From Yuukianura sp. NJ FZ-2021 (lineage: Eukaryota): a DNA stretch of 64,000 bases. Location of the stretch: NCBI GenBank assembly GCA_046563655.1, contig CM102288.1, forward strand, positions 992,001 to 1,056,000, given 5' to 3'. Under the pieces are notes generated by a model. That model ran no database searches, was not told where the DNA came from, and saw only the letters and a list, made by a program, of their open reading frames with translations. Position numbers and translations under genes: made by a program. Positions 2,389 to 58,865 of this stretch are shown here, piece after piece. The first letter of the stretch is position 1. Each line of letters starts with the position of its first letter.

Positions 2389-3910
2389 AAGGTAAAACTG
2401 AAATGAAAACACAAATTAAAAAACAATTAAAGATTAAGTAGTTACTCCACTTTAGCCTAATGCTAAATTAGGTTATTGCTTGCTTCTCGCTGTCTCGTCA
2501 AACTGGAATAGACCGAATATGATTCATGACATGAATGAAAGCTATTTACTTTGTGGGCGTATTCATAAAATTCTAAACCAAAACAAGAGAACAAAAATAA
2601 CCAAACTGAAAAGTTCACGTGACTGTCAGATCAAGTTAATCTGGATTCTATTATGCTATATTTTTTGCACCTTATTCGTTGCACAATGATTTGCGTTACA
2701 ACAATGTCCAAGTGAACGATCCATATAAAAGGAAACGGCAAACAACTCAAAATGATATTTTCAAAGGAATTTTAAATGTGATATGAATTTTTTCCCGTGA
2801 TTGACATTGACAGACGACAGACATGGTGACATTCCAACTGAAATGAAATTGACAACACCCTTGCGATTGTAATTCGCAAATCAAGGAAATCAGGAAATGT
2901 CAACCCCATTTTGCGAATATGACAGATCATTTCTGATGAAAACATAAAACATTTACCTATTCTGTTTGGAAATGATGAAACACCAAGGTCAAGGCCAAGG
3001 GTGAAAGGGCAGAATCCCCGAATGTACCCTCTCCTCATCAAATGTCAACGAGATTGATCATATGAGACAGCGTTAGTTTAGTGTTGAATTGAACTGTCCG
3101 ATTAACTAACAAATTAAAAACATTCCTCAAATATTTAGCGCTAGCACATCGCAAATTGAACTTAGTATTTAAGTTTAGTTTTAAAGTTATCATTTTAAAG
3201 TTGTCAAATTCCAGTGTAAGTACTAATCAATTACCAAACTCTTGGAAATCGGTGAGTATGACCTGGATAGGAGAAGATCAAAACAATAAACAGCTGGGCT
3301 ATTTGGTGCAGTTATCTAGACCTAAATAGATAAATTACAGTTTACCTTTTCAGAACGGTAAAAACAAACTAAAAACCGTAATTCCAATTACTTTTATCTC
3401 CTCATGTTGTTATCTTATTTTCTTTTTTCTTATGAAAGTGTACGTCATTATTATTTTCATCCACAAATACATGTTCACCCATATCTAATATGGGCATCTC
3501 AAAAACAATTTCAGTACGCAAACGCAAAGTTGGTTGGAATTCCTATTGGTGTTAAACAAACTAAATAACTATGTAAGCTAATTTAAATTACATCATAAGT
3601 TATAAATATATAAATAATTAGCCACATTACATCATCAAGTTAAACCTAAGTTATCAGTACAGTAACTTATACGTGAGTAATTAATAACTTATGCCCAAAG
3701 CTGATGACATTTGATCAGTGAAAAGATAGTGTGTGGGTATTTTTGTGAGACCAACAAACATACCAATAAAAACGTAAAGATTTGAGTAAAAGTTAGAGCA
3801 GAATTTGGCAATAAATTTTTGAGACAGCGGAGAACCAGTGACGGCGCAGAACGCTTTCATCATTTCGACTGCATGGTCGTCAGTCACCATTTCCTATCCA
3901 ATTTCTTTAG

Positions 3911-4065: not shown

Positions 4066-5205
4066 ATGGGTCGTCGACCGGCCAGATGGTAAGATCCGAT
4101 TTGCTTACGTTTTTAGAATGTTGTGGTTTTTTAGCGTAGTGGGGTCATTTGCTAACAAGAAAAACTTTTCCCGCGACCCTTTTAACTCGATGAGAAAAAA
4201 ACGTCCATTTGAAAACTTTTTCTTGTTAGCAAATGACCCCACGGTACAAGTTATGTAGAGCAATAACGTTTTTAGTGTTGATGAACCGATTATGCACTAC
4301 CCTCGGCTCTTAATCCAGATCGTAGATGGATATGAGTCAAAAGCAGTTTGTGCAGAAACTAAAGTTACCTTGTCGCCTTTTACATTGCTTGATCGATGTA
4401 AAAGTGAACTTCAAGTGTCATACACTTGTAAAATAATATAGATTTGGGTGTTCATAAGTTCTTTGTTTCTCTTTTTTATAGTTATCGCTACTGCAAGAAC
4501 AAGCCGTACCCAAAGTCACGGTTTTGTCGTGGTGTTCCGGATCCCAAAATCCGAATTTTTGATTTGGGCAAGAAGAAGGCTGGAGTTGATGACTTTCCTC
4601 TCTGTATCCACTTGGTGTCAGATGAATATGAACAGCTATCATCTGAAGCACTTGAAGCCGGCCGTATTTGTTGCAACAAGTACTTGGTCAAGTTTTGCGG
4701 AAAAGATCAGTTCCACATTCGGATGAGACTCCATCCCTTCCATGTTCTGCGAATCAACAAGATGTTGTCCTGTGCCGGAGCTGATCGGCTCCAAACTGGA
4801 ATGAGAGGTGCCTTCGGTAAGCCGCTCGGAACAGTTGCTCGTGTCAACATTGGGCAGCCAATCATGAGTGTGAGGTCGTTGGACAAACACAAGGCTGCAG
4901 TTATCGAGGCTCTGCGACGTGCCAAGTTCAAGTTCCCTGGTCGTCAGAAGGTAACGAAACCGAAAGTTTTTTGCATAATCGTTTCAGCGTGAATAGTTTT
5001 TAGATAAAGCTTTAACTTAATCTCTGTTTTTCAGATCTTCGTCTCAAAGAAGTGGGGATTCACGAAGTGGGAGCGAGACGACTATGAGCGTATGAAGGCC
5101 GAAGGTTCTCTGCGTAACGATGGATGTAATGTCAAATATCTTCCAAACCATGGTCCACTCTCAGATTGGAAGAAGGTCCAAGAAGAAATTGCAGGATTGG
5201 CTTAG
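4066..5205 (+). CDS. RpL10: 60S ribosomal protein L10 (uL16/QM); coding exons 4066-4088, 4481-4950, 5035-5205
   Basis: [37 protein letters not shown]...[23 protein letters not shown]; splice phases consistent. Confidence 0.98.
4139..4244. mobile_element. Short MITE-like inverted-repeat element in RpL10 intron
   Basis: 32-bp inverted repeats (4139-4170, 4211-4242) with one mismatch; TA at 4137-4138 and 4245-4246. Confidence 0.55.
4293..4427 (+). ncRNA. Candidate intronic box H/ACA snoRNA in RpL10 intron
   Basis: Two hairpins (TGCAC..ATCCA/TGGAT..GTGCA; CTTTTACATTG/CGATGTAAAAG), ANANNA (AAACTA, 4356-4361) between them, ACA at 4422-4424; ~135 nt. Confidence 0.33.
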
Positions 5206-13053: not shown

Positions 13054-13823
13054 AAACATGTTCATTTCAACATGAAATTTTAACTACCACACTAGTATTC
13101 TCAAATGCAAACAACAAAACTTCAAGCGCACAACGTTTAGTCAAAATTCGTAAATGTAAATTGTAAAATCAATTTAGCATTGCTCATTTAACTTTGTTTG
13201 ATGTGTTTCGTTTCCGCGTGTTCTCACAATGTCAACAGTCGCTAACTTGTGTTATCTGTGTAAAAAGTGTGACGTAACTTGTGATTTCCTCGACTTTACA
13301 AGATTTTAACTTCGCAACATTTAATTCATTTCCCATAAGATATTTCGAAAGTTTGAAGTGCATTTTAAAAAGTGCAGTCAGCATTTCTTGGAGTTTGTAA
13401 CTTCTTGTTAGAGTAGCTTTTAACTTTAATCGTTCATGAGCAGCTAATTGAATTAAAGGTTAAATTTAACTACGGAACGGTAATGCGGCAAATAGTTGAA
13501 TGCGGCGAGTTTGGGTAAACTTGTCGGTAAATTCGAGTTTTAACATTCATATTTGTATTTTCATTCACCTCATAACAGTTCCTCGGTCTTTATGAATTTT
13601 GAGTGTTAAAATCCTGGATGTGTCGAAGTTTGATGTCACGTCTTATGAATGCTGGAAATATTCATAAAGTGAATGACCTGAATATGTCAGTGACACGTTT
13701 CCATTGCAGCTATTAGCATTATGATTTCTCAAGTTTTGACGGAGTGACAATTTCAACTAAATCGTTCATATAACTTCTGTTGCAACTTGCAATCGAAAAC
13801 TACTCTAACTACTCGAAAAGAAA

Positions 13824-15338
13824 ATGAGGCTGAGCGACATTTTACGACTTTTGGCCAGCCTCTTTTGGGTCACCGCGGCGGTACAAGCAGAGTTCAAAGA
13901 TTTTGAATCGTGCTTAGTAAGAAATGGACTAAATTCAGCGCAGATTGTACGCAGAAGCGATTCCAGCGCATACGGAGTCCTTAACTACCAATGGCAACTC
14001 AAACTACCTCAAATTACACCGTTGGCCTATTTAGTCGTAGAGTCCGGCGCCGACGTTGTCGCAGCCGTCAAATGTGGGCGGGCAGCTAGAATTCGTGTAG
14101 TGCCAAAAAGTGGCGGGCATAATTTTGAAAAGTATTCGTTCGGCGACTCGGAATCAATCGTTTTGGATCTGCGCAAACTCAGTGCAGTAGAAGTTTCAGA
14201 AGACCGGTCACAAGCCACAGTGGGCGCCGGAATCCTACTAGGTCCATTGGTCTACTCACTCTGGAAAAGTGCCAAAGTGTTTATACCTACCGGATACTGC
14301 CCAGCAGTCGGAGTTTCTGGAGTGGCTCTTGGTGGCGGTTATGGCAACTTTGCGCAAACTTATGGACTGACGACTGACCAAATTCTGAAAATGACTTTGG
14401 TTACAGCCAACGGATCGCTTATTACTGCCAGTTCAACTGAAAACAGCGATGTCTTCTGGGCACTACGCGGAGCCGGAGCGACTTCGTTTGGAATCGTAAC
14501 GCAGTTTACTTTTAGGGTTTTCAAGGCGCCAAAAATTGTGTTCCTGGGGACACTTACTTACAACTTGGCTTTGTTCCCACCAGTTTTTGAAATTTGGCAA
14601 AAATATTTAATAGGAGATTCTAGAAAAGTTACAACTGAAATTGAAATCGTGGCTGAAAATTTCCTCCTTCGATTTGTGGATCCGTCTGGTCTAAATCACG
14701 AATTTGAAAAGTTTAGAAAATCCTGTCCACCTCCTACTAACATCTCTAGAATTTTTGTACCATTTGATGAGTTCTTATTTTATGAAGCCAAGTACTTGTC
14801 ATTTTCGGTTGGCCCGCAAGTACAATTCAACAAGCCAAAAGACCTTGCAAACATTGATAGATTCTCTACAGAACCCCAATTTGTCCAAAGAAAATCATTT
14901 TATGTAACTAAACTAATGGGAAAACTGAAAATTCTTGAGCTTTATAACTTAATTCTTGCGAGACCACCTTCAATGCAAGCTTGGTTTGAACCTTACGGAG
15001 GAGCTATTAATGACTTCAGGTCAACTGAAACCGCGTTTGTGCACAGACAAGGCAGAATTTACTGTGCAGTTGCCAGTTACCGCAATGTGAATCCAACACA
15101 ACTGGAAAACGAAATTGGAATTTCATGGCTCCATACTTTTCATAATTTCTTCGTAAATGTTCTCCATGAAAAAGAAAGTTACCAAAACTATGTGGATTCA
15201 GAGTTAGCGGATTACCTGCAACGCTATTATGGTAAAAATTTAAACAGATTGGTTAAGGTTAAGAGAAAATACGACCCTGAAAACTACTTTAAAAATCCAC
15301 TATCCATACCGACTGTGCTCCCGAAAAAGAAATTTTGA
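13824..15338 (+). CDS. Secreted FAD-linked oxidoreductase, berberine bridge enzyme-like (FAD_binding_4 + BBE); intronless, 504 aa
   Basis: Signal peptide, KSGGHN (His-FAD), TGYCPAVGVSGVALGGGYG (Cys-FAD), DVFWALRGAG, SYQNYVD..YYGKNLNRLVKVKRKYDPENYF. Confidence 0.93.
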   Translation: MRLSDILRLLASLFWVTAAVQAEFKDFESCLVRNGLNSAQIVRRSDSSAYGVLNYQWQLKLPQITPLAYLVVESGADVVAAVKCGRAARIRVVPKSGGHNFEKYSFGDSESIVLDLRKLSAVEVSEDRSQATVGAGILLGPLVYSLWKSAKVFIPTGYCPAVGVSGVALGGGYGNFAQTYGLTTDQILKMTLVTANGSLITASSTENSDVFWALRGAGATSFGIVTQFTFRVFKAPKIVFLGTLTYNLALFPPVFEIWQKYLIGDSRKVTTEIEIVAENFLLRFVDPSGLNHEFEKFRKSCPPPTNISRIFVPFDEFLFYEAKYLSFSVGPQVQFNKPKDLANIDRFSTEPQFVQRKSFYVTKLMGKLKILELYNLILARPPSMQAWFEPYGGAINDFRSTETAFVHRQGRIYCAVASYRNVNPTQLENEIGISWLHTFHNFFVNVLHEKESYQNYVDSELADYLQRYYGKNLNRLVKVKRKYDPENYFKNPLSIPTVLPKKKF

Positions 15339-39952: not shown

Positions 39953-41124
39953 AAAGAAAATTGACAGTGCGGTGCCCAACGTCTTAAAATTTGCCAAATT
40001 ATGCAGATTTGATTTCAATTTGAAAAAATTTTCTCTATTAAACATATTGATCCTGGAAGACATATTTTTTCTAGAAAAAAAAATCATAGTTTTAAGAAAC
40101 ACGACAAAAATGTCGAGTTGTGAACGCAAATTCGGATTTTGAAATTTGTTGAAATTCCTCTTTTTGTATTCCAAAAGTGTTGTCCATAATTTAAAAAAAC
40201 TGAACCAAACGTATGAATTGTTTATAAAAAGTTTAGTTTTTAACCTGTTTTTTAACCAGTAACCTTTTAGCCTAACTAGTTTCAATTTTTGAGAAAAGAG
40301 AAAGTGACGGGATAAAGTAAAAGTTCCTATTGTGTCCCTTGAGGAAATGAATGAGTGATTAATTATTAAATTTGTTCAGAATGTACTGACTCTTATCCCA
40401 CCTTGGAGCCATCTTACCGCAAAAACCGACCAAATAAATGTATGAAGTGGAACAAACAACAAAGGAACGTGGAGCTTATGCTTAGACTTTCTTTTGTTCC
40501 TTCTCATTTCTCTCTGTCGCTTATGATTATTTTGAGTACTCAAATGTTTTAAGTTAATTGACTTTGCCATAAGCGTCTCCACCAAAATACGTACTTTTTA
40601 AATTTCTATTTCATTTTTAATGTAATTTGTACTTGAGTACCTGATACAGCGAGTGTAATGTTAAGTTTCGTTCGTAAGTAATTTAATAAAAGTTTGAGTT
40701 TCGAAGGAGGACTTAGCTTAACTGTTTTTTTTTAAAACAAAAATTGTGTCAAAAATTAATTAAAAAATTCGTACCCGACATCTTCTGATACTCGTTTACA
40801 TACGTTTACATAATGCTTTACCACTTGAAGCGAAACAGAAAAGTCAATTAAACTTAAATATTTCAGTTTTTGGGAAACAAAATCAATAGCGAAGAACTCT
40901 GTAATAGCTGGATTGATTTTATTTAACCTTCAATTTCAAATTTCCACGAAAAGTTCCCCGAAACTGTCTGTTTTTGACAAACTTCATTCAATCTTCTGTC
41001 AACCTCAGCGTAGAAAATTGAAAAATCTTGGAGCATTTTGGAAATTTTTAAAGCAAAATTCAGTTTCATTTTTAGTTTTCAGAAGCTGAATTAAGAATCA
41101 CAAGAATTTCCAACTGGGACAAAA

Positions 41125-41870
41125 ATGGCAACTGACAAAATTAAAAACAACCAAGTTACGGACGTCATTTCGAAAGATGTAAGGTTTGCAACTTTTTTAA
41201 ATAAAAAAAAGTGCTAAAATTTTTGTCATAATTGTTGATTCTTTTTGTAGAAAGTCAAAATGGGAACATTTTGGGCCGAAAGCGGTGCGGTGATTGTCTT
41301 TTTACGAAAGTTTGCATGAATGTACTGTCAGCAATGGGCTACACAGCTAACCACTCTGTTACCATTGCTTACTAAAAATAATTACCGGCTCATTGGAATC
41401 GGATTTTCCGATTACAAATTGGATTTCTTTCAAGAAAAAAATTTCTTTGGTGGTGACTTATATTTGGATGACAATTACGGTACCTACAAGGCTCTTGAGT
41501 TCAAGCGATTCAATATTTTGAGTCTTACTACAAATCTCCTCAGCAAGCAAGTTCGACAAGTTACTAAGCAGGTTTCTAAAAACTATCAAATTTTTTATAT
41601 TTTTTAGAATTTTCATATTTTCAAAAAAATTACAATGTTGAAAACTAGGCGTTCAAGAATGGGCTGAAACTGGACATGGGGGGAGACTCATTTCAAAATG
41701 GCGGAATTCTCCTCGTTGAAAAAGGCGGCAACGTTGTTTTAAACTACCGACAAAAAACGCCTGCCGATCACCTCGAAAATGGCGCCATTCTGAAAGCTCT
41801 CAACATTTCTGAAGAGATGGAACCAGATAAAACCAGTCGTCCGTTCGAAGTTCAAGAAATTTCAATTTAG
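41125..41870 (+). CDS. PRXL2B: Selenocysteine-containing PRXL2B/FAM213B (prostamide/PGF synthase; AhpC-TSA_2, SelenoU family); exons 41125-41178, 41251-41571, 41649-41870; TGA 41317-41319 read as Sec; 198 aa
   Basis: FWAESGAVIVFLRKFA-TGA-MYC aligns with PRXL2B LW..CVV..LRRFGCxxC; RLIGIG, FFGGDLYLD, GDSFQNGGILLVEKGG, RQKTPADH; SECIS downstream. Confidence 0.9.
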
Positions 41871-41932
41871 ACATCATACTAATTGAAAATTGTACACCAA
41901 ATTCAATTTTTTTTTTCAAAATTTGAAGGAAA

Positions 41933-42048
41933 CTAGAATCTTGGAATTCTGATTTCAATCTTTATGACTCCACTTGAACTAAATTGTTGAAAAACAACGT
42001 TGAAGTGAATGATTTTCACTCGCTTGAATCAGAATTCTAATGTTCTAG
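41933..42048 (+). promoter_or_regulatory. Type II SECIS element in PRXL2B 3'UTR
   Basis: ATGA 41964-41967; 11-bp helix II with two mismatches; AAA 41981-41983; apical mini-stem TTGTT-GAAA-AACAA; TGAT 42010-42013; long helix I GAATTCTGATT/AATCAGAATTC. Confidence 0.88.
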
Positions 42049-42207
42049 TGTAAATTTGTCAGGTTACAGCTTTTTCTTTTGTCAGGTTTGTCAGGCTAAA
42101 GCTTCAAAGATTAAGTAAATCTGAATCACCCGAATTTTAGGTTGAAACGTTGAACGTAAGTTTTAAAATGTTTATTTGAAAACATTGAAATTTTTAATTC
42201 TTCAAGG

Positions 42208-43550
42208 TCAAGGCAACGTTTCCCCAATCTCACGTTCAATCCAATCTCTGAATTTAGCTGTACTAGCGTATAGCCCTGGAGTTCCAATGACTCCGCATGA
42301 AAATGGCATCGAAACTGAAAAATTGACAAAAAAAATTGTCATTCTTCAAATTTTAAATATCTGAGAATTGGAAATTCAGTTCTCACCAATTCCACATTGA
42401 ACTTGAACGTTATTATCTGTACAAAACAGGGGTCCACCACCATCTCCAGTACAAACATCCATATCAGCAACCTAATTCCAACCCAAAAAATGTTAATGTC
42501 AACATTTCCATGAAATTTTTCAAAAATTCGAACCAAAAATGTTTCCGATTTAGGAAAACTTTTATTGTAGAATAGAAAACTCACCGAACCGCCTGCACAG
42601 AACATAGTACCATCAGCTGCTTCTGGATGAGCAGCGACACAATTGGCGTCGCCGTCCGGGATTACTGGAATTGCGACCTTCTTAGGTTCGGTCGACATGT
42701 CACCAGGTTGGCTTGTTTTACCCCATCCAACAGCAATTCCTTCTCCTGTTCACAAATTGTACAAAGTTTTACAAAAAATCAACAGTTGTAATCGCCATAC
42801 GTAAGTAGCGAAAGGAAATTGAGGTAAACAGCCCGGAAGTTGTGCACGTCCAGTTAAAACGGAAACCGATTAGTCACCCCTGGACCTGTGAAGTGCATCC
42901 GCGAAGACAGATTGAAAATTGGTCCACTGGTTCCAGTCTAGCAGACAGATCAAGAGACAGACAGACAGATTTACACACAGACAGACGGACAGACAGACTC
43001 GGGAAAAAATATAAAGTAGCTCATACTTTCGCTACTTAATCATTCTTCTTTTTGTGCTTTTGCCCTTACCGGACGGTACGTATCCCAGAGCCGGAATTTT
43101 GACAAGTTCGATGATTCCAGTGGTTAGGTCAAACGGTTCTGCTAGTTCCAGGAGTGCAATGTTGCTTGAGTAGCGTGCCGTATTTGAATAGTCAGGATGT
43201 ACGACATTCCGCTTGACAGGGACAGTTACGCTAATGCTATCCACATCTCCCAAGACATGGTCGCCTGCAACGACTTGGTAAAATGGAATGCAGTCCGCAG
43301 CCGTTAACGCCCATTTTGGGTGGATCAGCGTCGCTCCACAGGAGTGCGTTCCTTCATTTAGTAATGAAGGAAACTCGTGCGATGTCACAACTGAACCACC
43401 GACGATACTCTCAACTTGCCTAGCTACAGTAAACAGCCTAAGTTTTCAAATTGCTTTCATTTTTGAAAATTTTAGAATTTCAAAATCTTGTTTTTGAAAC
43501 TTACCTGCGCATGCAACCAATGCTAAAATTAAAACTGCTGAAACCTTCAT
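42208..43550 (-). CDS. Serine protease homolog (catalytically inactive trypsin-like), multi-exon
   Basis: Signal peptide, IVGG, TAADC (His>Asp), SSNIALL (Asp>Asn), GDGGGP (Ser>Gly); open frame across GT-AG introns. Confidence 0.85.
42803..43037 (-). mobile_element. DINE-1/HINE-like non-autonomous Helentron in SPH intron
   Basis: 12-bp inverted repeats AAGTAGCGAAAG (42803-42814) / CTTTCGCTACTT (43026-43037), adjacent partial IR AAGTAGC (43014-43020), internal (GTCY)n microsatellite. Confidence 0.6.
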
Positions 43551-53481: not shown

Positions 53482-56400
53482 TTAAAATGGACATGGAGTC
53501 TGTAGTCCAAAATCATTTGAATTATATGCTGCCCAGTTACACATGGCTCCGATGGGGTCAAAGGTCAATGACCTCGGACATTCATAAATCCAAGCTTTAA
53601 GTCCACTGCCGTCTTCATTCTCCACGCAACGAATGTAACTGCGTCCACAGGATTTGGGATGGGCATAAATTCCACTGTCTCGGCATGTCACCGATCCATC
53701 TTCCAAAATCCGGATTTTGTCCGATAGGGGAACAATCGTTTGAGGAAAAGCATCTTTGACCTCTGGAGTGACCTTGAATGAAATCTTGACCTCTGGAGTG
53801 ACCTTGAGTGAACTCTTGACCTCTGGAATGACCTTGACGTCTAAACTTCTTCTGGAGAATGTGGAAGATGCAGCAGACTGTGACTGAGATTTGTCTAGAA
53901 GATCATCTTCATCTTCGTATACATAGTAGTAGTAGTCTGACGAATCAGGAATTGGCACAATATGGCTGACCTTGGGGTCAGTTGATTTGGAGACAGTAGT
54001 TGTAGTGGGTGGGGTTGTTGACGTTGTTGTTGTTGACGTTGTTGACGTCGACGTTGTTGACGTTGAAGGAGTGGCCATGGTCAGGGGTTTACGCGTTCTG
54101 CGCCGAATCACTGCAGACTGAAAAGCACTCGGTAGTGGACCGAGTGTGGAAGAAGCTGACGCAGATTTGTCGCGCAGGAAATTGTCGTAAGTGTCGCTGA
54201 CGTCTGCGTTTGTGCTGGCAGTTGTAACTGATGCTGGACGGAATCTCGAGCGATACCGAGTTTGTGTCTCGGGAGTTGTCGAAGTTGGTCTGGTGCGACG
54301 TCCGGAGTTTCTAAACCGATTTGTATCAGTTACTGCAACTCCGGAAGATCCAGAAGGACTGAGATTTTGAAAAAGTTTTAGAAAGTTTAGAAATTTGTGA
54401 ATCAAAATCAATTTTTGGCAAAGGTTAGTAAGGAGCAGTTAAGCGTGAATTTTTTATTCAGGTTGTTAACTGTGATTAGTCAAGTGGTTAGCACTTTCTA
54501 ATTAGAAAAATTAGCTTTTTAGCTTTCCTTGTTCAAATTCACCTCTCTTTTTCTTCAACCTCGGAAACTTCTGGAGCTATCGTCGAAGTTGAGCTGGAAG
54601 CGACACGTCGACGGTCTAAAAATGTGTTTCGCCGGTTCGACGGACTGAAATTATTGACTGGTCTGTATGTAACTTTGAATGTCGTCGGAGGAGGTTCGGA
54701 TGTCGTAGATGTCGTAATAGGTCTCAGCGATGGTCGCTTTCTGTTTGGTAAGCGAAGTCTTTGCGCTTGCGTTGGTTTGACCGTCGTAGCGACAGTTGTT
54801 GTAGTCGTAGAAGTCGAAGAAGTTGACGAAACAATGGCGGGTTCATCTGCAGCGTAGTCATCTTCAGCAGTGCTTTCGTATTCTTCGTCCTGAAATATTT
54901 AGAAACCCAAAAATTGTTTGAAAAAAAATAAATCGGATTTTTTGAAAAAACTTTTGAAGTTTTTGCCTTGACCTGTTCAGCCACTGGTGCGTCACTCTGT
55001 TCCTCAATAGTGGAGCTTGGCGGAACTGTTGTGGATGTCGTACTAAAACTGAATTTTGGTCTAGAGAAAGTTGCGTATCTAAAATAAAAATAATTTTTCA
55101 AATTTTTTGAAACTCTTGTATTTTGACTATGTAAAACTCAGGTAAAGTTGAGGAGAGGACTTAGCAAGATTTCATCAAGTAAAAATTTTTAGATATTGGT
55201 GGGACTTAGCAAGATTTTCAAGACAATTTTCTTACTTTGGTTTCGGCTTCTCTTCAGATGCTGCTGTTTCTTCATCGGCTGACCCTGTCGTGACCTTGGA
55301 ATACGGTACACTTGTAACGTAGGTCAAAGGTTTGGGAGTAGCCGTTGTACTTTCATCGAGCAATTTCTCTTCATCACTAAATCGAACCACGATTGATGTC
55401 TGTGTGCTGGAACTGGGCTTGTCACTTTTTGTCGTTCCAGAAGTAGTGCCCTTGTCACGACTCAGAGTGACATACTTCGGGCGACCAGTCGCTTTGAAGT
55501 TACTACTTGTCGTTATCGGTGCCACTGAACTTTGATCTGTTTTAGTGACACGGTCACGCTGAATACTTGTGTAAGGTCGAGGACTTCCTGGACTAAATTT
55601 CTTCGAAGCTTGAAGCGAACTGAATCGGTTTTTATTTGAATTCGGAACAGCTTTAGGTTTTTCTGTTGTAGTTGAAGGCTTGGCTTCTTCCTAAAACATC
55701 CAAAAATTTAAAATTCAAAACAATTTTTCAAAATTCAAACTAATTTTTCAAAATGTAAAACTGATTTTGGAAAAATCTACCTCAACGTCTTCGTCTTGAT
55801 ACTCTTCAACTTGATCAGCAACATCCGGATTGTCCTCCAAATATTTTTCCAACTCCTCAACTCCTCCCAACTTCCGAATTATTTTCAGCAAATTTCGGAT
55901 ATCTTGAATTTCTTGTGCTGATTTTGTGGAAGACGAAGATTGACCTTTGACCTTCGATTGACCTTTGACCTTGACCTGAACTTTTCTTGGTTCTTCTTCT
56001 TCCTCTTCCTCATCTTCATCATTTACTTCTGGTTCTTCTTCTTCTTCATCATAATATTCGTCCTGCTCTTCAGGAGCCGGTGTCGTAGTAGTTGTCGTAG
56101 TGGCGACAGTTGTCGTAGTTGTTGTCGTACCACCGGGTTTGCAAGGAACGTTTCTTGAATAGTCGCATGAATCAGTGTTTTTGTTAAAGAAAAGTCCTGC
56201 TGGACATGTAAAATGATGAGCAACAATTCCTAGTCCAGGAGCATCCAGACACCAGAAATACTTTTTGCAATCTTTGGGATGAGGAAAGAATCCATCATCT
56301 TTGCACTCAAAATCAACGCTAGTTTCGGGAGTAGTCGGAGGAGGCGGAGTTCTTAACGGATCGTGTGTGACTGGCGGCGGTGTCGTCGTTGTCGTAGTGC

Positions 56401-58865
56401 GAGCAGTGGTGGTCGTCTTGGGTTTTGCCTTCTTGCGCCTTGGGCGCGGAGTTTTTGGTTTTTTGCGACTACTAGATTTTGTCGCAACGGTTGTCGTAGA
56501 AGGTGGTTTAGGCGTTGTTGTTGTCGTAGGTCGTTTTGAACCAATAGCAAATCTTGAATTTCCTGGTCTTGAACTTTTTTTAGTTTCTGGACTTTCACCA
56601 GTGTAGTAAGCAACTTTGGCAGCTTCGATCAACGGGAAAGCTTTTCCGTCACAAAATCCACGAAAGTCGTCGTTGTCAATTGACCAAAACATGATTCCAC
56701 CTAGTTTCTGTTCACGTACCCACTTGGCCTAAAAATAAAGGTCAAAGGTCAGATTTCTTGATAAAAAGTATAATGTAATAAGTTATGTAATTAGTTTAAT
56801 TTGTGTTAAATAGAGTTAAATGGGGCTACAATTACCTTGATAGCCATAATTCGAGTGTCGTCATATCCCACCCACTGGTCATCCTTCACAGCATGTGGAC
56901 CTTGAGTTTCACTCAAGTCATTCTCTACTCGCCATTCACCAGCCTTTATGCCTTCGCAAATCTGTACAAAAAATTATCAATTACTAATTAACAAAGAAAG
57001 TTAATGAATTTTTTAATTTTTTGTCACATTTTTTGAAATCAGTTCGTGACATGTTTGTGGCTAGCCTTCAACGCCGTATAAAAAAACATATAACTTTTTT
57101 TGTTACTTTACTTCTGCTTTTGCATAAAAGGTAAGGTGTCGTAATCTCAATACTAAAACTTGTAAGGAAAACTTTTTCTACAATAATTATATTTTTTTCC
57201 CTGTTTTTTTTTTCAAAATTTCATTTTGCTTTTTAAGCTTTCATTTTTGGCGAAAGAAGAGAAATTTACTTACTTCGTAGTAGGCCAAATACCCGGGTTC
57301 TTTTGTGTACTTGCCCTTCGTGCCTGGACCGGAAGCTGAAGCTCCAACATCATAACTGTCCGGATTGAACAAAGTGTATGACCTGTGAAAATTTAAATGT
57401 CAAGGTCATTGACCTTAAAATTTCAAAAACTGAAAAATGAAATTTTGAAGTTTTTTACCTTCCGTAAGTAGGAAGTCCAACGACAAGCTTGTGAGCATCA
57501 GCCCCCTCATCCAAGTAGTAGTTGATTGCATACTCCTAAAAAGTAAAAGTAGAGTTCCTTTAATTAAAATCAGTGATTAATTGTAGTGTAGGTGTAAGTT
57601 AATTAGGAAATGAATAGCTTCACTCACGATATTCAGTTGGCTCTTGTAGTCATAATCTGAGAAACCATCTTTGGGTTTGAGTGGAGCGTGATGATTGGCT
57701 GCTGGCTCAGTGGAAGCGTGGAAATCGTACGTCAATAGATTGAAAAAATCAACATTTCTATAAAATGAAATCAAAATAGATTAAATTATAATAAATAATA
57801 AAATAAGTAAATAAAAATTAAAAAATTTACACCGCAGGTCCAACTCATTTATGTATAACGATTCATATGGCGAACTTTGGCAAAGTTTCTAAAATTTAAA
57901 ATTTATAATGGAGAAAATAGAGCGGAATTTAAACGTTGCGGCATACTTTTTGATAATTTTTTCTATACTAATTATATGTATTGTAAATAATATAAATAAT
58001 TATTATTTATTATATTTTAGCAACGTACCTGTTTATACTTGGAATGTCAAAGCCTTTCTGGATCCATTCAATTCCTGCTGGTACTGCAATTGTAAGTAGA
58101 AGTCTCGTCCGTCCCGTTCCTTTACTTTCTTCATCAAAAGCTTCACGCAGTTCCTAATTATATTTTATATAAATTAAAATTAATTTAATTATATCTTTAT
58201 TACTTAATTATATTTCTACCTTGATGAAAAGTGCATAGTTCTTTTTGTCCGCCGGTTGTCCACCTTCCCGTGAAGCAGGATACTCCCAATCCAAATCCAG
58301 TCCATCAAAGTTATGTTGACGCAGAAATCGCACGCTATTTTTGACGAACGTTTTGCGACTTTCTGCGTCCGCGACAAGACGTGAAAATCGTCCTGATCCT
58401 TCGTTCCATCCGCCAATTGCAATCAGCGTCTTGAGCCCTTTATTGTACGTTTTGAGTCCATTGAACTTTGTATACCCTCCTAAAAATCAAAAATTCCAAA
58501 TTCTTCAATTTTTTCCAGTTTCCTGGAGAAAGTTCAAAAAGTGTTTTCATTTGTGCTAGTTTAAAACAGTGACCTTTGTCAATGTCTTGGTACTTGTCGA
58601 ATGGTTTGAGTCCAGCATCAGACGTGAGTCCTCCGAAGGCGTAGATGAGATGTGTACAGAGGTAGGGGTTGATGTTGTCTGGCAGAAATTTGGCAGGACC
58701 TTGACGATACGCTGACCAATTCGTGTAGTAACAGACGACACGTGACTCTGATTTTGTAACTGCAGACGTAGGAAATTGGAACAACAGAGCACTCAACAGT
58801 GACTGCAAGACTAGAAATTTCGAATGACCAACAACGGATGAACCAAATTTTGAAAACTGCATCAT
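53482..58865 (-). CDS. Cht6: Group VI (Cht6-like) GH18 chitinase with two CBM14 chitin-binding domains and mucin-like S/T-rich linkers
   Basis: VVCYYTNWSAYR..NINPYLCTHLIYAFGG..PFDKYQDI; FDGLDLDWEYP intact; MFWSIDNDDF; CKDDGFFPHPKDCKKYFWC; C-terminal CRDSGIYAHPKSC..C. Confidence 0.9.

Follow-up and report, generated by a model that had tools for sequence, protein, structure and literature searches.

The hairpin on the + strand of positions 41932-42049 of the window (the whole stretch of 64,000 nucleotides that was analyzed) is very probably a genuine type II SECIS element that serves a SelU3/PRXL2B selenoprotein gene. This reading draws on several direct observations, namely, the structure of the hairpin, its position and strand, the homology on either side of an in-frame TGA in the gene upstream, the recurrence of that TGA among homologues, and the resemblance of the hairpin to the SECIS elements that those homologues carry. 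SBP2 binding and selenocysteine (Sec) insertion would follow by analogy with the eukaryotic system, in which SBP2 binds a kink-turn of sheared G.A/A.G pairs and recruits eEFSec with Sec-tRNA(Sec). On this analogy, we propose that the AUGA/UGAU core of the hairpin would form such a sheared G.A/A.G kink-turn and be bound by SBP2, that SBP2 would recruit eEFSec carrying Sec-tRNA(Sec), and that the ribosome would then read the UGA at 41317-41319 as Sec. The product would be a thioredoxin-fold protein of the prostamide/prostaglandin F synthase-like kind, in which a U-x-x-C active site replaces the C-x-x-C of the Cys forms.

An in-frame TGA at the redox Cys of a PRXL2B-like gene

The gene upstream of the hairpin lies on the + strand and consists of three exons of 18, 107, and 73 codons (198 altogether), which are separated by introns with GT/AG borders and followed by a TAG stop (41868-41870). 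Its second exon matches the Pfam domain AhpC-TSA_2 (PF13911) with 38.6 bits against a cut-off of 27, and the third exon continues the same profile (positions 82-113 of 114). The best PDB match is human PRXL2B (9us9_A, 198 residues), with an E-value of 7.9e-19 over residues 2-105, and no protein other than PRXL2B gives a significant PDB match. In the alignment with 9us9_A, the TGA (41317-41319) stands opposite the first Cys of the CxxC motif (GCVVC, in the context RRFGCVVCR). It is situated in the middle of an exon, such that homology is seen on both sides of it within that one exon, and the reading frame is intact on either side.

An exhaustive profile-free protein search recovered 222 relatives at E <=0.001. 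The best named homologues are insect proteins described as “prostamide/prostaglandin F synthase” from Papilio machaon, Anabrus simplex, and Neocloeon triangulifer, with 36-42% identity, and these have a Cys at the position of the TGA. A search for longer homologous proteins found none. The probable subfamily is U3/PRXL2B, an assignment made by best hits only. PRXL2B is given as SELENOU3 in PMC13134290; the copy in the window has in common with SELENOU3/PRXL2B the AhpC-TSA_2 fold and a U/C-x-x-C motif at the same position, whereas it differs from the named insect homologues, with their Cys, in having a TGA (predicted Sec).

The same codon was also examined in homologues and in a second contig. 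In an alignment of the query with 27 homologues (A1), the TGA falls in a nearly invariant Cys column. Two of the 27 show a Trp in that column, and three (P0041, P0081, and P0082) begin 1-2 residues after it; both are what a gene caller would be expected to produce from a TGA at this point. A metagenome scan with the single protein returned no relative, and a scan with a close sub-alignment returned four homologous loci, three of which have TGA at the same codon, with the fourth being a Cys form (Table 1). Further, a 613-nt contig from the organism's own reads (run X3) spans 41114-41714 with 10 differences, none of which falls on 41317-41319. The two short introns account for seven of these, and by our own codon reading the three coding changes are K>R, a synonymous change of Ile, and D>E. 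The original prediction held that the hairpin supports recoding of the TGA at 41317, and this is borne out by the alignment of the TGA with the first Cys of the CxxC motif, by its presence in three of the four loci, and by the match of the hairpin to a covariance model of homologous elements (model R2, below).

Two of the metagenome loci, L001 and L002, are themselves predicted to have Sec-type PRXL2B/SelU3 genes, which are unannotated. In the L001 cluster, the database proteins (P0082 and its fellow members) start just after the TGA; these are truncated predictions.

Anatomy of the hairpin

A base-by-base reading of the + strand places AUGA at 41964-41967, followed by C41968, such that the 5' side of the quartet is UGAC (41965-41968), with UGAU (42010-42013) as the 3' core. 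Helix II is formed by 41969-41979 (TCCACTTGAAC) and 41999-42009 (GTTGAAGTGAA); 9 of its 11 positions are standard pairs, the two mismatches being C41970/A42008, which is the second pair after the core, and G41976/G42002. The apical region has T41980 and AAA (41981-41983) as unpaired letters, followed by a mini-stem of 5 bp (41984-41988/41993-41997) closed by a GAAA loop (41989-41992), which is also present in the unconstrained minimum-free-energy (MFE) fold. Below the core lies a basal helix (helix I) of 25 pairs in three blocks (41932-41939/42042-42049, 41941-41954/42027-42040, and 41956-41958/42024-42026), whose arms were found by a repeat search as 23 nt with 87% complementarity. The motif can be read as a SECIS in one orientation only, that of the + strand, on which the gene also lies. 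All the elements named in the original prediction (AUGA at 41964, the quartet UGAC/UGAU, a helix II with two mismatches, the AAA at 41981-41983, the mini-helix with its GAAA loop, and an extended helix I) could thus be read in the sequence.

Table 1. Positions of the gene, its TGA, and the parts of the predicted SECIS hairpin in the window, with the corresponding features of the homologous metagenome loci (numbered within each locus)
Feature	Positions	Strand	Evidence
Exon 1, ATG 41125 (start inferred), 18 codons, GT donor at 41179	41125..41178	+	Sequence, ORF frames
Exon 2, 107 codons, U-x-x-C redox motif	41251..41571	+	Translation, Pfam, PDB match
In-frame TGA read as Sec (predicted)	41317..41319	+	Alignment to Cys of 9us9_A; TGA in L001-L003
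Exon 3, 73 codons and TAG 41868-41870; AG acceptor 41647-41648	41649..41870	+	Translation, Pfam profile continued
Whole SECIS hairpin, type II (predicted)	41932..42049	+	Sequence, fold, patterns, covariance model
Helix I, 5' arm (25 pairs in all; 1x1 loop 41940/42041; bulged T41955)	41932..41958	+	Fold, pair list
5' core, AUGA and C (UGAN side of quartet)	41964..41968	+	Sequence; fits UGAN/KGAW (PMC3753652)
Helix II, 5' strand	41969..41979	+	Sequence, pair list
Unpaired AAA	41981..41983	+	Sequence, fold; 12 nt after core, spacing as in L001 and L002
Helix III mini-stem, 5 bp, GAAA loop	41984..41997	+	Sequence, fold
Helix II, 3' strand	41999..42009	+	Sequence, pair list
3' core, UGAU (KGAW side of quartet)	42010..42013	+	Sequence
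Helix I, 3' arm	42024..42049	+	Fold, pair list
AGTAAA, only poly(A)-signal-like hexamer after the SECIS (candidate)	42114..42119	+	Hexamer scan
L001, codon context F-G-TGA-V-F-C-R
L002, codon context F-G-TGA-L-F-C-R
L003, codon context F-G-TGA-P-L-C-R
L004, TGT, Cys form
Strict-pattern type II SECIS of L001 (predicted), AUGA at 888	885-935	Coding strand of L001	Pattern search
Strict-pattern type II SECIS of L002 (predicted), AUGA at 3226	3223-3278	Coding strand of L002	Pattern search

Three further observations concern the DNA of the hairpin and its immediate surroundings. First, the contigs of runs X2 and X3 show a population variant, T41950C, that would turn T41950-A42031 in helix I from a pair into C/A and that counts against the SECIS reading; no change at 42031 is found among the differences listed for the DNA contigs of the runs, four sets of contigs that cover the hairpin in fragments only. 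Second, directly 3' of the hairpin, TTTGTCAGG is present three times (42052-42095), and in the diverged contigs of runs X1-X3, 15 other letters take the place of what lies between 42044 and 42091; this junction looks like a difference in the copy number of TTTGTCAGG that starts right after the last pair of the SECIS. Third, in an Rfam search of 301 nt, the 3' part of the U4 snRNA matched weakly at 41879-41958 (23.5 bits against a gathering score of 46; E 0.0016); this match overlaps the 5' arm of helix I as well as a poly-T stretch and is probably driven by composition.

Published SECIS criteria

The SECIS core has been defined as UGAN/KGAW, with tandem G.A/A.G pairs (Mariotti et al. 2013; PMC3753652). 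For comparison with such elements, the PatScan patterns of SECISearch were taken from Supplement S1 of that paper and re-implemented, and the filter values, against which we set measurements of our own, were taken from its Supplement S4. The core of the hairpin, UGAC/UGAU, fits this definition, with GA on both its sides, and all four patterns (strict, default, loose, and loose+) in our re-implementation match at 41964. The AAA, in the place of the conserved unpaired As (or Cs) of the apical region, lies 12 nt after the N of the core, where the pattern allows 11-13 nt. Turning to the SECISearch3 filter, helix II has 11 positions (allowed, 7-15) with 19 nt between its strands (allowed, 8-30), the bending is 0 (allowed, <=2), and the RNAeval energy of -32.0 kcal/mol is to be compared with a limit of -4. 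The grading code awards points for the bending, for fewer than three bad pairs, and for the AA, and deducts 0.4 for the A41964-U42014 match before the core. The sum is 2.6 without the Covels term, for which the SECISearch3 grade would be A or B.

The hairpin thus resembles eukaryotic type II SECIS elements, as described in PMC3753652, in its core, in the 11 positions of helix II, in the placement of the As 12 nt further on, and in the additional helix III. The placement is also alike, in that the upstream gene has an in-frame UGA where a redox Cys would be and its stop precedes the hairpin by only a short distance. No structural difference from these elements was seen, the hairpin having two mismatches in its helix II. 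With helix III following the As and the published patterns and filter values all matched, the type II architecture originally proposed for it is upheld.

Folding strength and background in the window

The unconstrained MFE of the hairpin is -37.0 kcal/mol (z = -5.17), whereas 200 dinucleotide shuffles average -20.6 (sd 3.2) and none of them folds as well. Helices I and II and the mini-stem are all present in the MFE fold. The basal helix contributes most of the energy; when evaluated with RNAeval, the upper part of the element by itself accounts for -7.7 kcal/mol.

The published patterns are unspecific in this AT-rich DNA, with the strict one alone matching 11 sites in the whole window. Specificity was assessed with a looser descriptor of our own, combined with constrained folding. 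Taken alone, the descriptor finds four sites in the window against 3.1 expected per shuffle; neither it nor the published patterns by themselves exceed chance frequency in the window, and they are informative only once combined with energy or with a position behind a gene. In combination with constrained folding, the site reaches -33.2 kcal/mol, much of it from helix I. None of the 348 descriptor-matching sites in 150 dinucleotide-shuffled windows attains this value, the lowest among them being -28.8 kcal/mol.

Covariance models and the SECIS elements of homologous loci

Rfam contains SECIS families. A search of the whole window with Rfam release 15 at gathering thresholds gave no match to a SECIS family, nor did a SECIS match emerge at E-values of up to 10 on stretches of 301 and 81 nt around the hairpin. 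As a control, the elements of L001 and L002 were searched in the same way, both as whole loci and as stretches of 91 and 96 nt, and Rfam missed these too. We consider the Rfam blank uninformative because the elements of the two homologous loci are equally missed, and a practical warning follows, that a SECIS may be present even where Rfam matches none.

The two comparison elements were found by pattern search; in either locus, a single match to the strict SECIS pattern lies on the coding strand, ~126 nt after the stop in L001 and ~200 nt after it in L002. From the cores of these two elements only, we built a covariance model (R2) of 56 positions and 10 pairs, which was searched with filters off. 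Its training set consists of two predicted, unvalidated elements, and its E-values are rough. This model matches 41961-42016 over its full length with 28.0 bits (E 0.0011), which is the single strong match in the window; the next best score in 128 kb, i.e., both strands of the window, is 13.3 bits. In the four metagenome loci, the background beyond the two training elements does not exceed 14.4 bits. Another model (R1), in which helix I was included, was set aside as non-discriminating; its local alignments skip the core, and the site ranks only fourth, with 15.6 bits and an E-value of 1.3. On scoring with SECIS covariance models, a check originally suggested for the hairpin, Rfam gives no match, and the two-core model places it at the top of the window.

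An alignment of the three elements with MAFFT places the AUGA, the AA 12 nt later, and the UGAU in the same columns, and the flanks UUUAUGA and UGAU(U/A)UU are common to all. The 11 column pairs of helix II are standard in 84.8% of the 33 cells, a share that drops to 30-49% if the partner columns are shifted by 1-3 positions, and 6 of the 11 pairs are changed on both sides among the three elements. This comparison points to a shared architecture and is not a statistical covariation. The elements of L001 and L002 are like the hairpin in that a mini-stem follows the As, the basal helix has at least 20 pairs, and helix II falls in the same columns, but differ from it in that the helix sequences are unrelated and the mini-stems, of 5, 4, and 6 bp in the set, are in differing register. 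The basal helix had initially been singled out as unusually long, a view that does not survive this comparison; a long basal helix is typical of the three-element set.

These results bear on a competing explanation, according to which the hairpin is an unrelated inverted repeat (foldback or MITE-like, or a chance palindrome) that happens to contain SECIS-like letters; the TGA would then genuinely terminate a decaying gene or stem from a sequencing error. The dominance of the basal helix in the folding energy is what a foldback would show, and the patterns that the hairpin matches are, as noted above, unspecific. Summed over the contigs, the depth at 41815-41997 is also slightly elevated, and a number of contigs end around 41924-41938; however, these breaks coincide with a low-complexity poly-T stretch just upstream of the hairpin. 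A 16-nt arm of the repeat has four matches in the window at <=3 mismatches, one of which is itself, where 2.41 are expected, and model R2, which ignores the basal helix, still singles out the site. Decay or error at the TGA is likewise difficult to reconcile with a frame that is intact on both sides of it, with canonical GT/AG introns, and with the retention of the TGA in a second, diverged contig and in three of the four homologous loci. Hence, we regard this explanation as highly unlikely and favor a type II SECIS.

Predicted placement in the transcript and the convergent gene

On the strand of the gene, the predicted SECIS occupies the stretch 61-179 nt past the TAG, and its AUGA follows that stop by 93 nt. 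In the spliced mRNA of the gene model, 567 nt separate the UGA at 41317 from the AUGA further downstream. Neither AATAAA nor ATTAAA is found on the + strand in 41871-42340, and hence none lies between the stop and the element; the candidate AGTAAA further downstream is listed in Table 1. On the basis of the gene model, the element would be included in the mRNA.

Beyond it lies a convergent gene of the trypsin family on the minus strand (42208-43445), with a Pfam Trypsin match (E 2.4e-16) in the exon at 43032-43445. Its stop is at 42208-42210, and both AATAAA (42171-42176, minus strand) and ATTAAA are seen just past it. The stops of these tail-to-tail genes are ~340 nt apart, and their predicted 3' ends are within ~60 nt of each other. 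Both placements in the original prediction, namely, ~60 nt after the PRXL2B stop and in the short gap before a convergent protease-homolog gene, agree with what was found, the former distance being 61 nt when measured to the base of the helix and the latter gene being recognizable by its Trypsin match and a G-D-G-G-G-P stretch.

In this neighboring gene, it is the active-site stretch that reads G-D-G-G-G-P. The usual serine-protease motif has Ser at the third position, and the gene accordingly looks, from its predicted protein, like a non-catalytic serine-protease homologue.

The tail-to-tail arrangement raises another possibility, that the hairpin is a structured RNA of a different type, such as a microRNA precursor or a regulatory stem common to the two convergent 3' UTRs. 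In addition to the location of the element between two genes with closely spaced stops, the only Rfam matches to the hairpin, MIR6140, MIR7504, and MIR8562 (15-16 bits), could be cited in its favor. However, the E-values of these matches are 1.5-5.9, and their scores are far below the gathering scores of 83-211 bits; they reflect the long stem only. A microRNA leaves unexplained the AUGA, AAA, and UGAU letters at SECIS spacing, and a structured RNA of this type accounts neither for the match to the SECIS cores of homologues nor for the TGA at the catalytic Cys. We consider this possibility extremely remote in comparison with a SECIS serving the upstream gene. No tRNA was found in the window with ARAGORN.

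Implications for annotation and for selenoprotein loss in hexapods

Standard gene callers would end the protein at codon 41 or have it begin downstream of the TGA, which has apparently happened to several of the database homologues, and recognition of the SECIS yields the full selenoenzyme of 198 residues that we predict. The gene also provides one data point for the history of selenoprotein loss in hexapods.

SelU3 is the most abundant SelU group of invertebrates in the account of Jiang et al. 2012 (PMC3473315), which has eight such proteins, with the three Cys forms all from deuterostomes, and SelU is listed among the 20 selenoproteins of the centipede Strigamia maritima (PMC4244043, Table S26). 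A Sec SelU3 gene with its SECIS in an arthropod is expected biology, because Sec forms of SelU3 in invertebrates and a centipede SelU have already been described. The centipede genome paper (PMC4244043) places the main loss of selenoproteins at the base of the insects. Our literature search found no description of a springtail selenoproteome; among the papers that it listed, Sec is mentioned only in the Holacanthella genome paper, which reports 4 SECIS matches and 6 tRNA-SeC predictions.

The loss of selenoproteins in insects, which PMC4244043 describes as repeated, suggests one more explanation, namely, that the element is a relic of a once Sec-encoding gene whose lineage no longer decodes Sec or is on its way to losing that ability, such that the TGA now terminates translation. 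That all the named insect homologues found carry Cys is in keeping with this. Against it, gene and element are both intact, and the differences in the contig from run X3 are mostly intronic (7 of 10), with the three coding ones being synonymous or conservative. A relic thus appears exceedingly improbable, and a functional SECIS remains the explanation that we prefer.

We tentatively propose, with slightly more doubt than confidence, that the genome might be that of a springtail-like, non-insect hexapod which still makes a Sec form of SelU3/PRXL2B where the named insect homologues have Cys, that Sec might have given way to Cys along the insect stem, once springtails had split off, and that the SelU3 SECIS might keep a family-specific form across distant animals, i.e., UUUAUGA, 12 nt, AA, and UGAUUUU on a very long basal helix.

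Other features of the window

Elsewhere in the window, an exon of the ribosomal protein uL16 was found in a + strand frame (4432-4992), which over 4483-4965 shows identities, among named matches, of 94% to Folsomia candida, 93% to Drosophila immigrans, and 92% to Orchesella cincta. Together with the insect origin of the best named homologues of the SelU3 gene, these indecisive values point to a hexapod, or at the least a pancrustacean, as the source, and a springtail is plausible. An open frame of 509 codons is also present on the + strand (13809-15338). Finally, a low-complexity frame rich in Thr and Pro on the minus strand (55748-56728) looks, by eye, chitin binding or chitinase-like.
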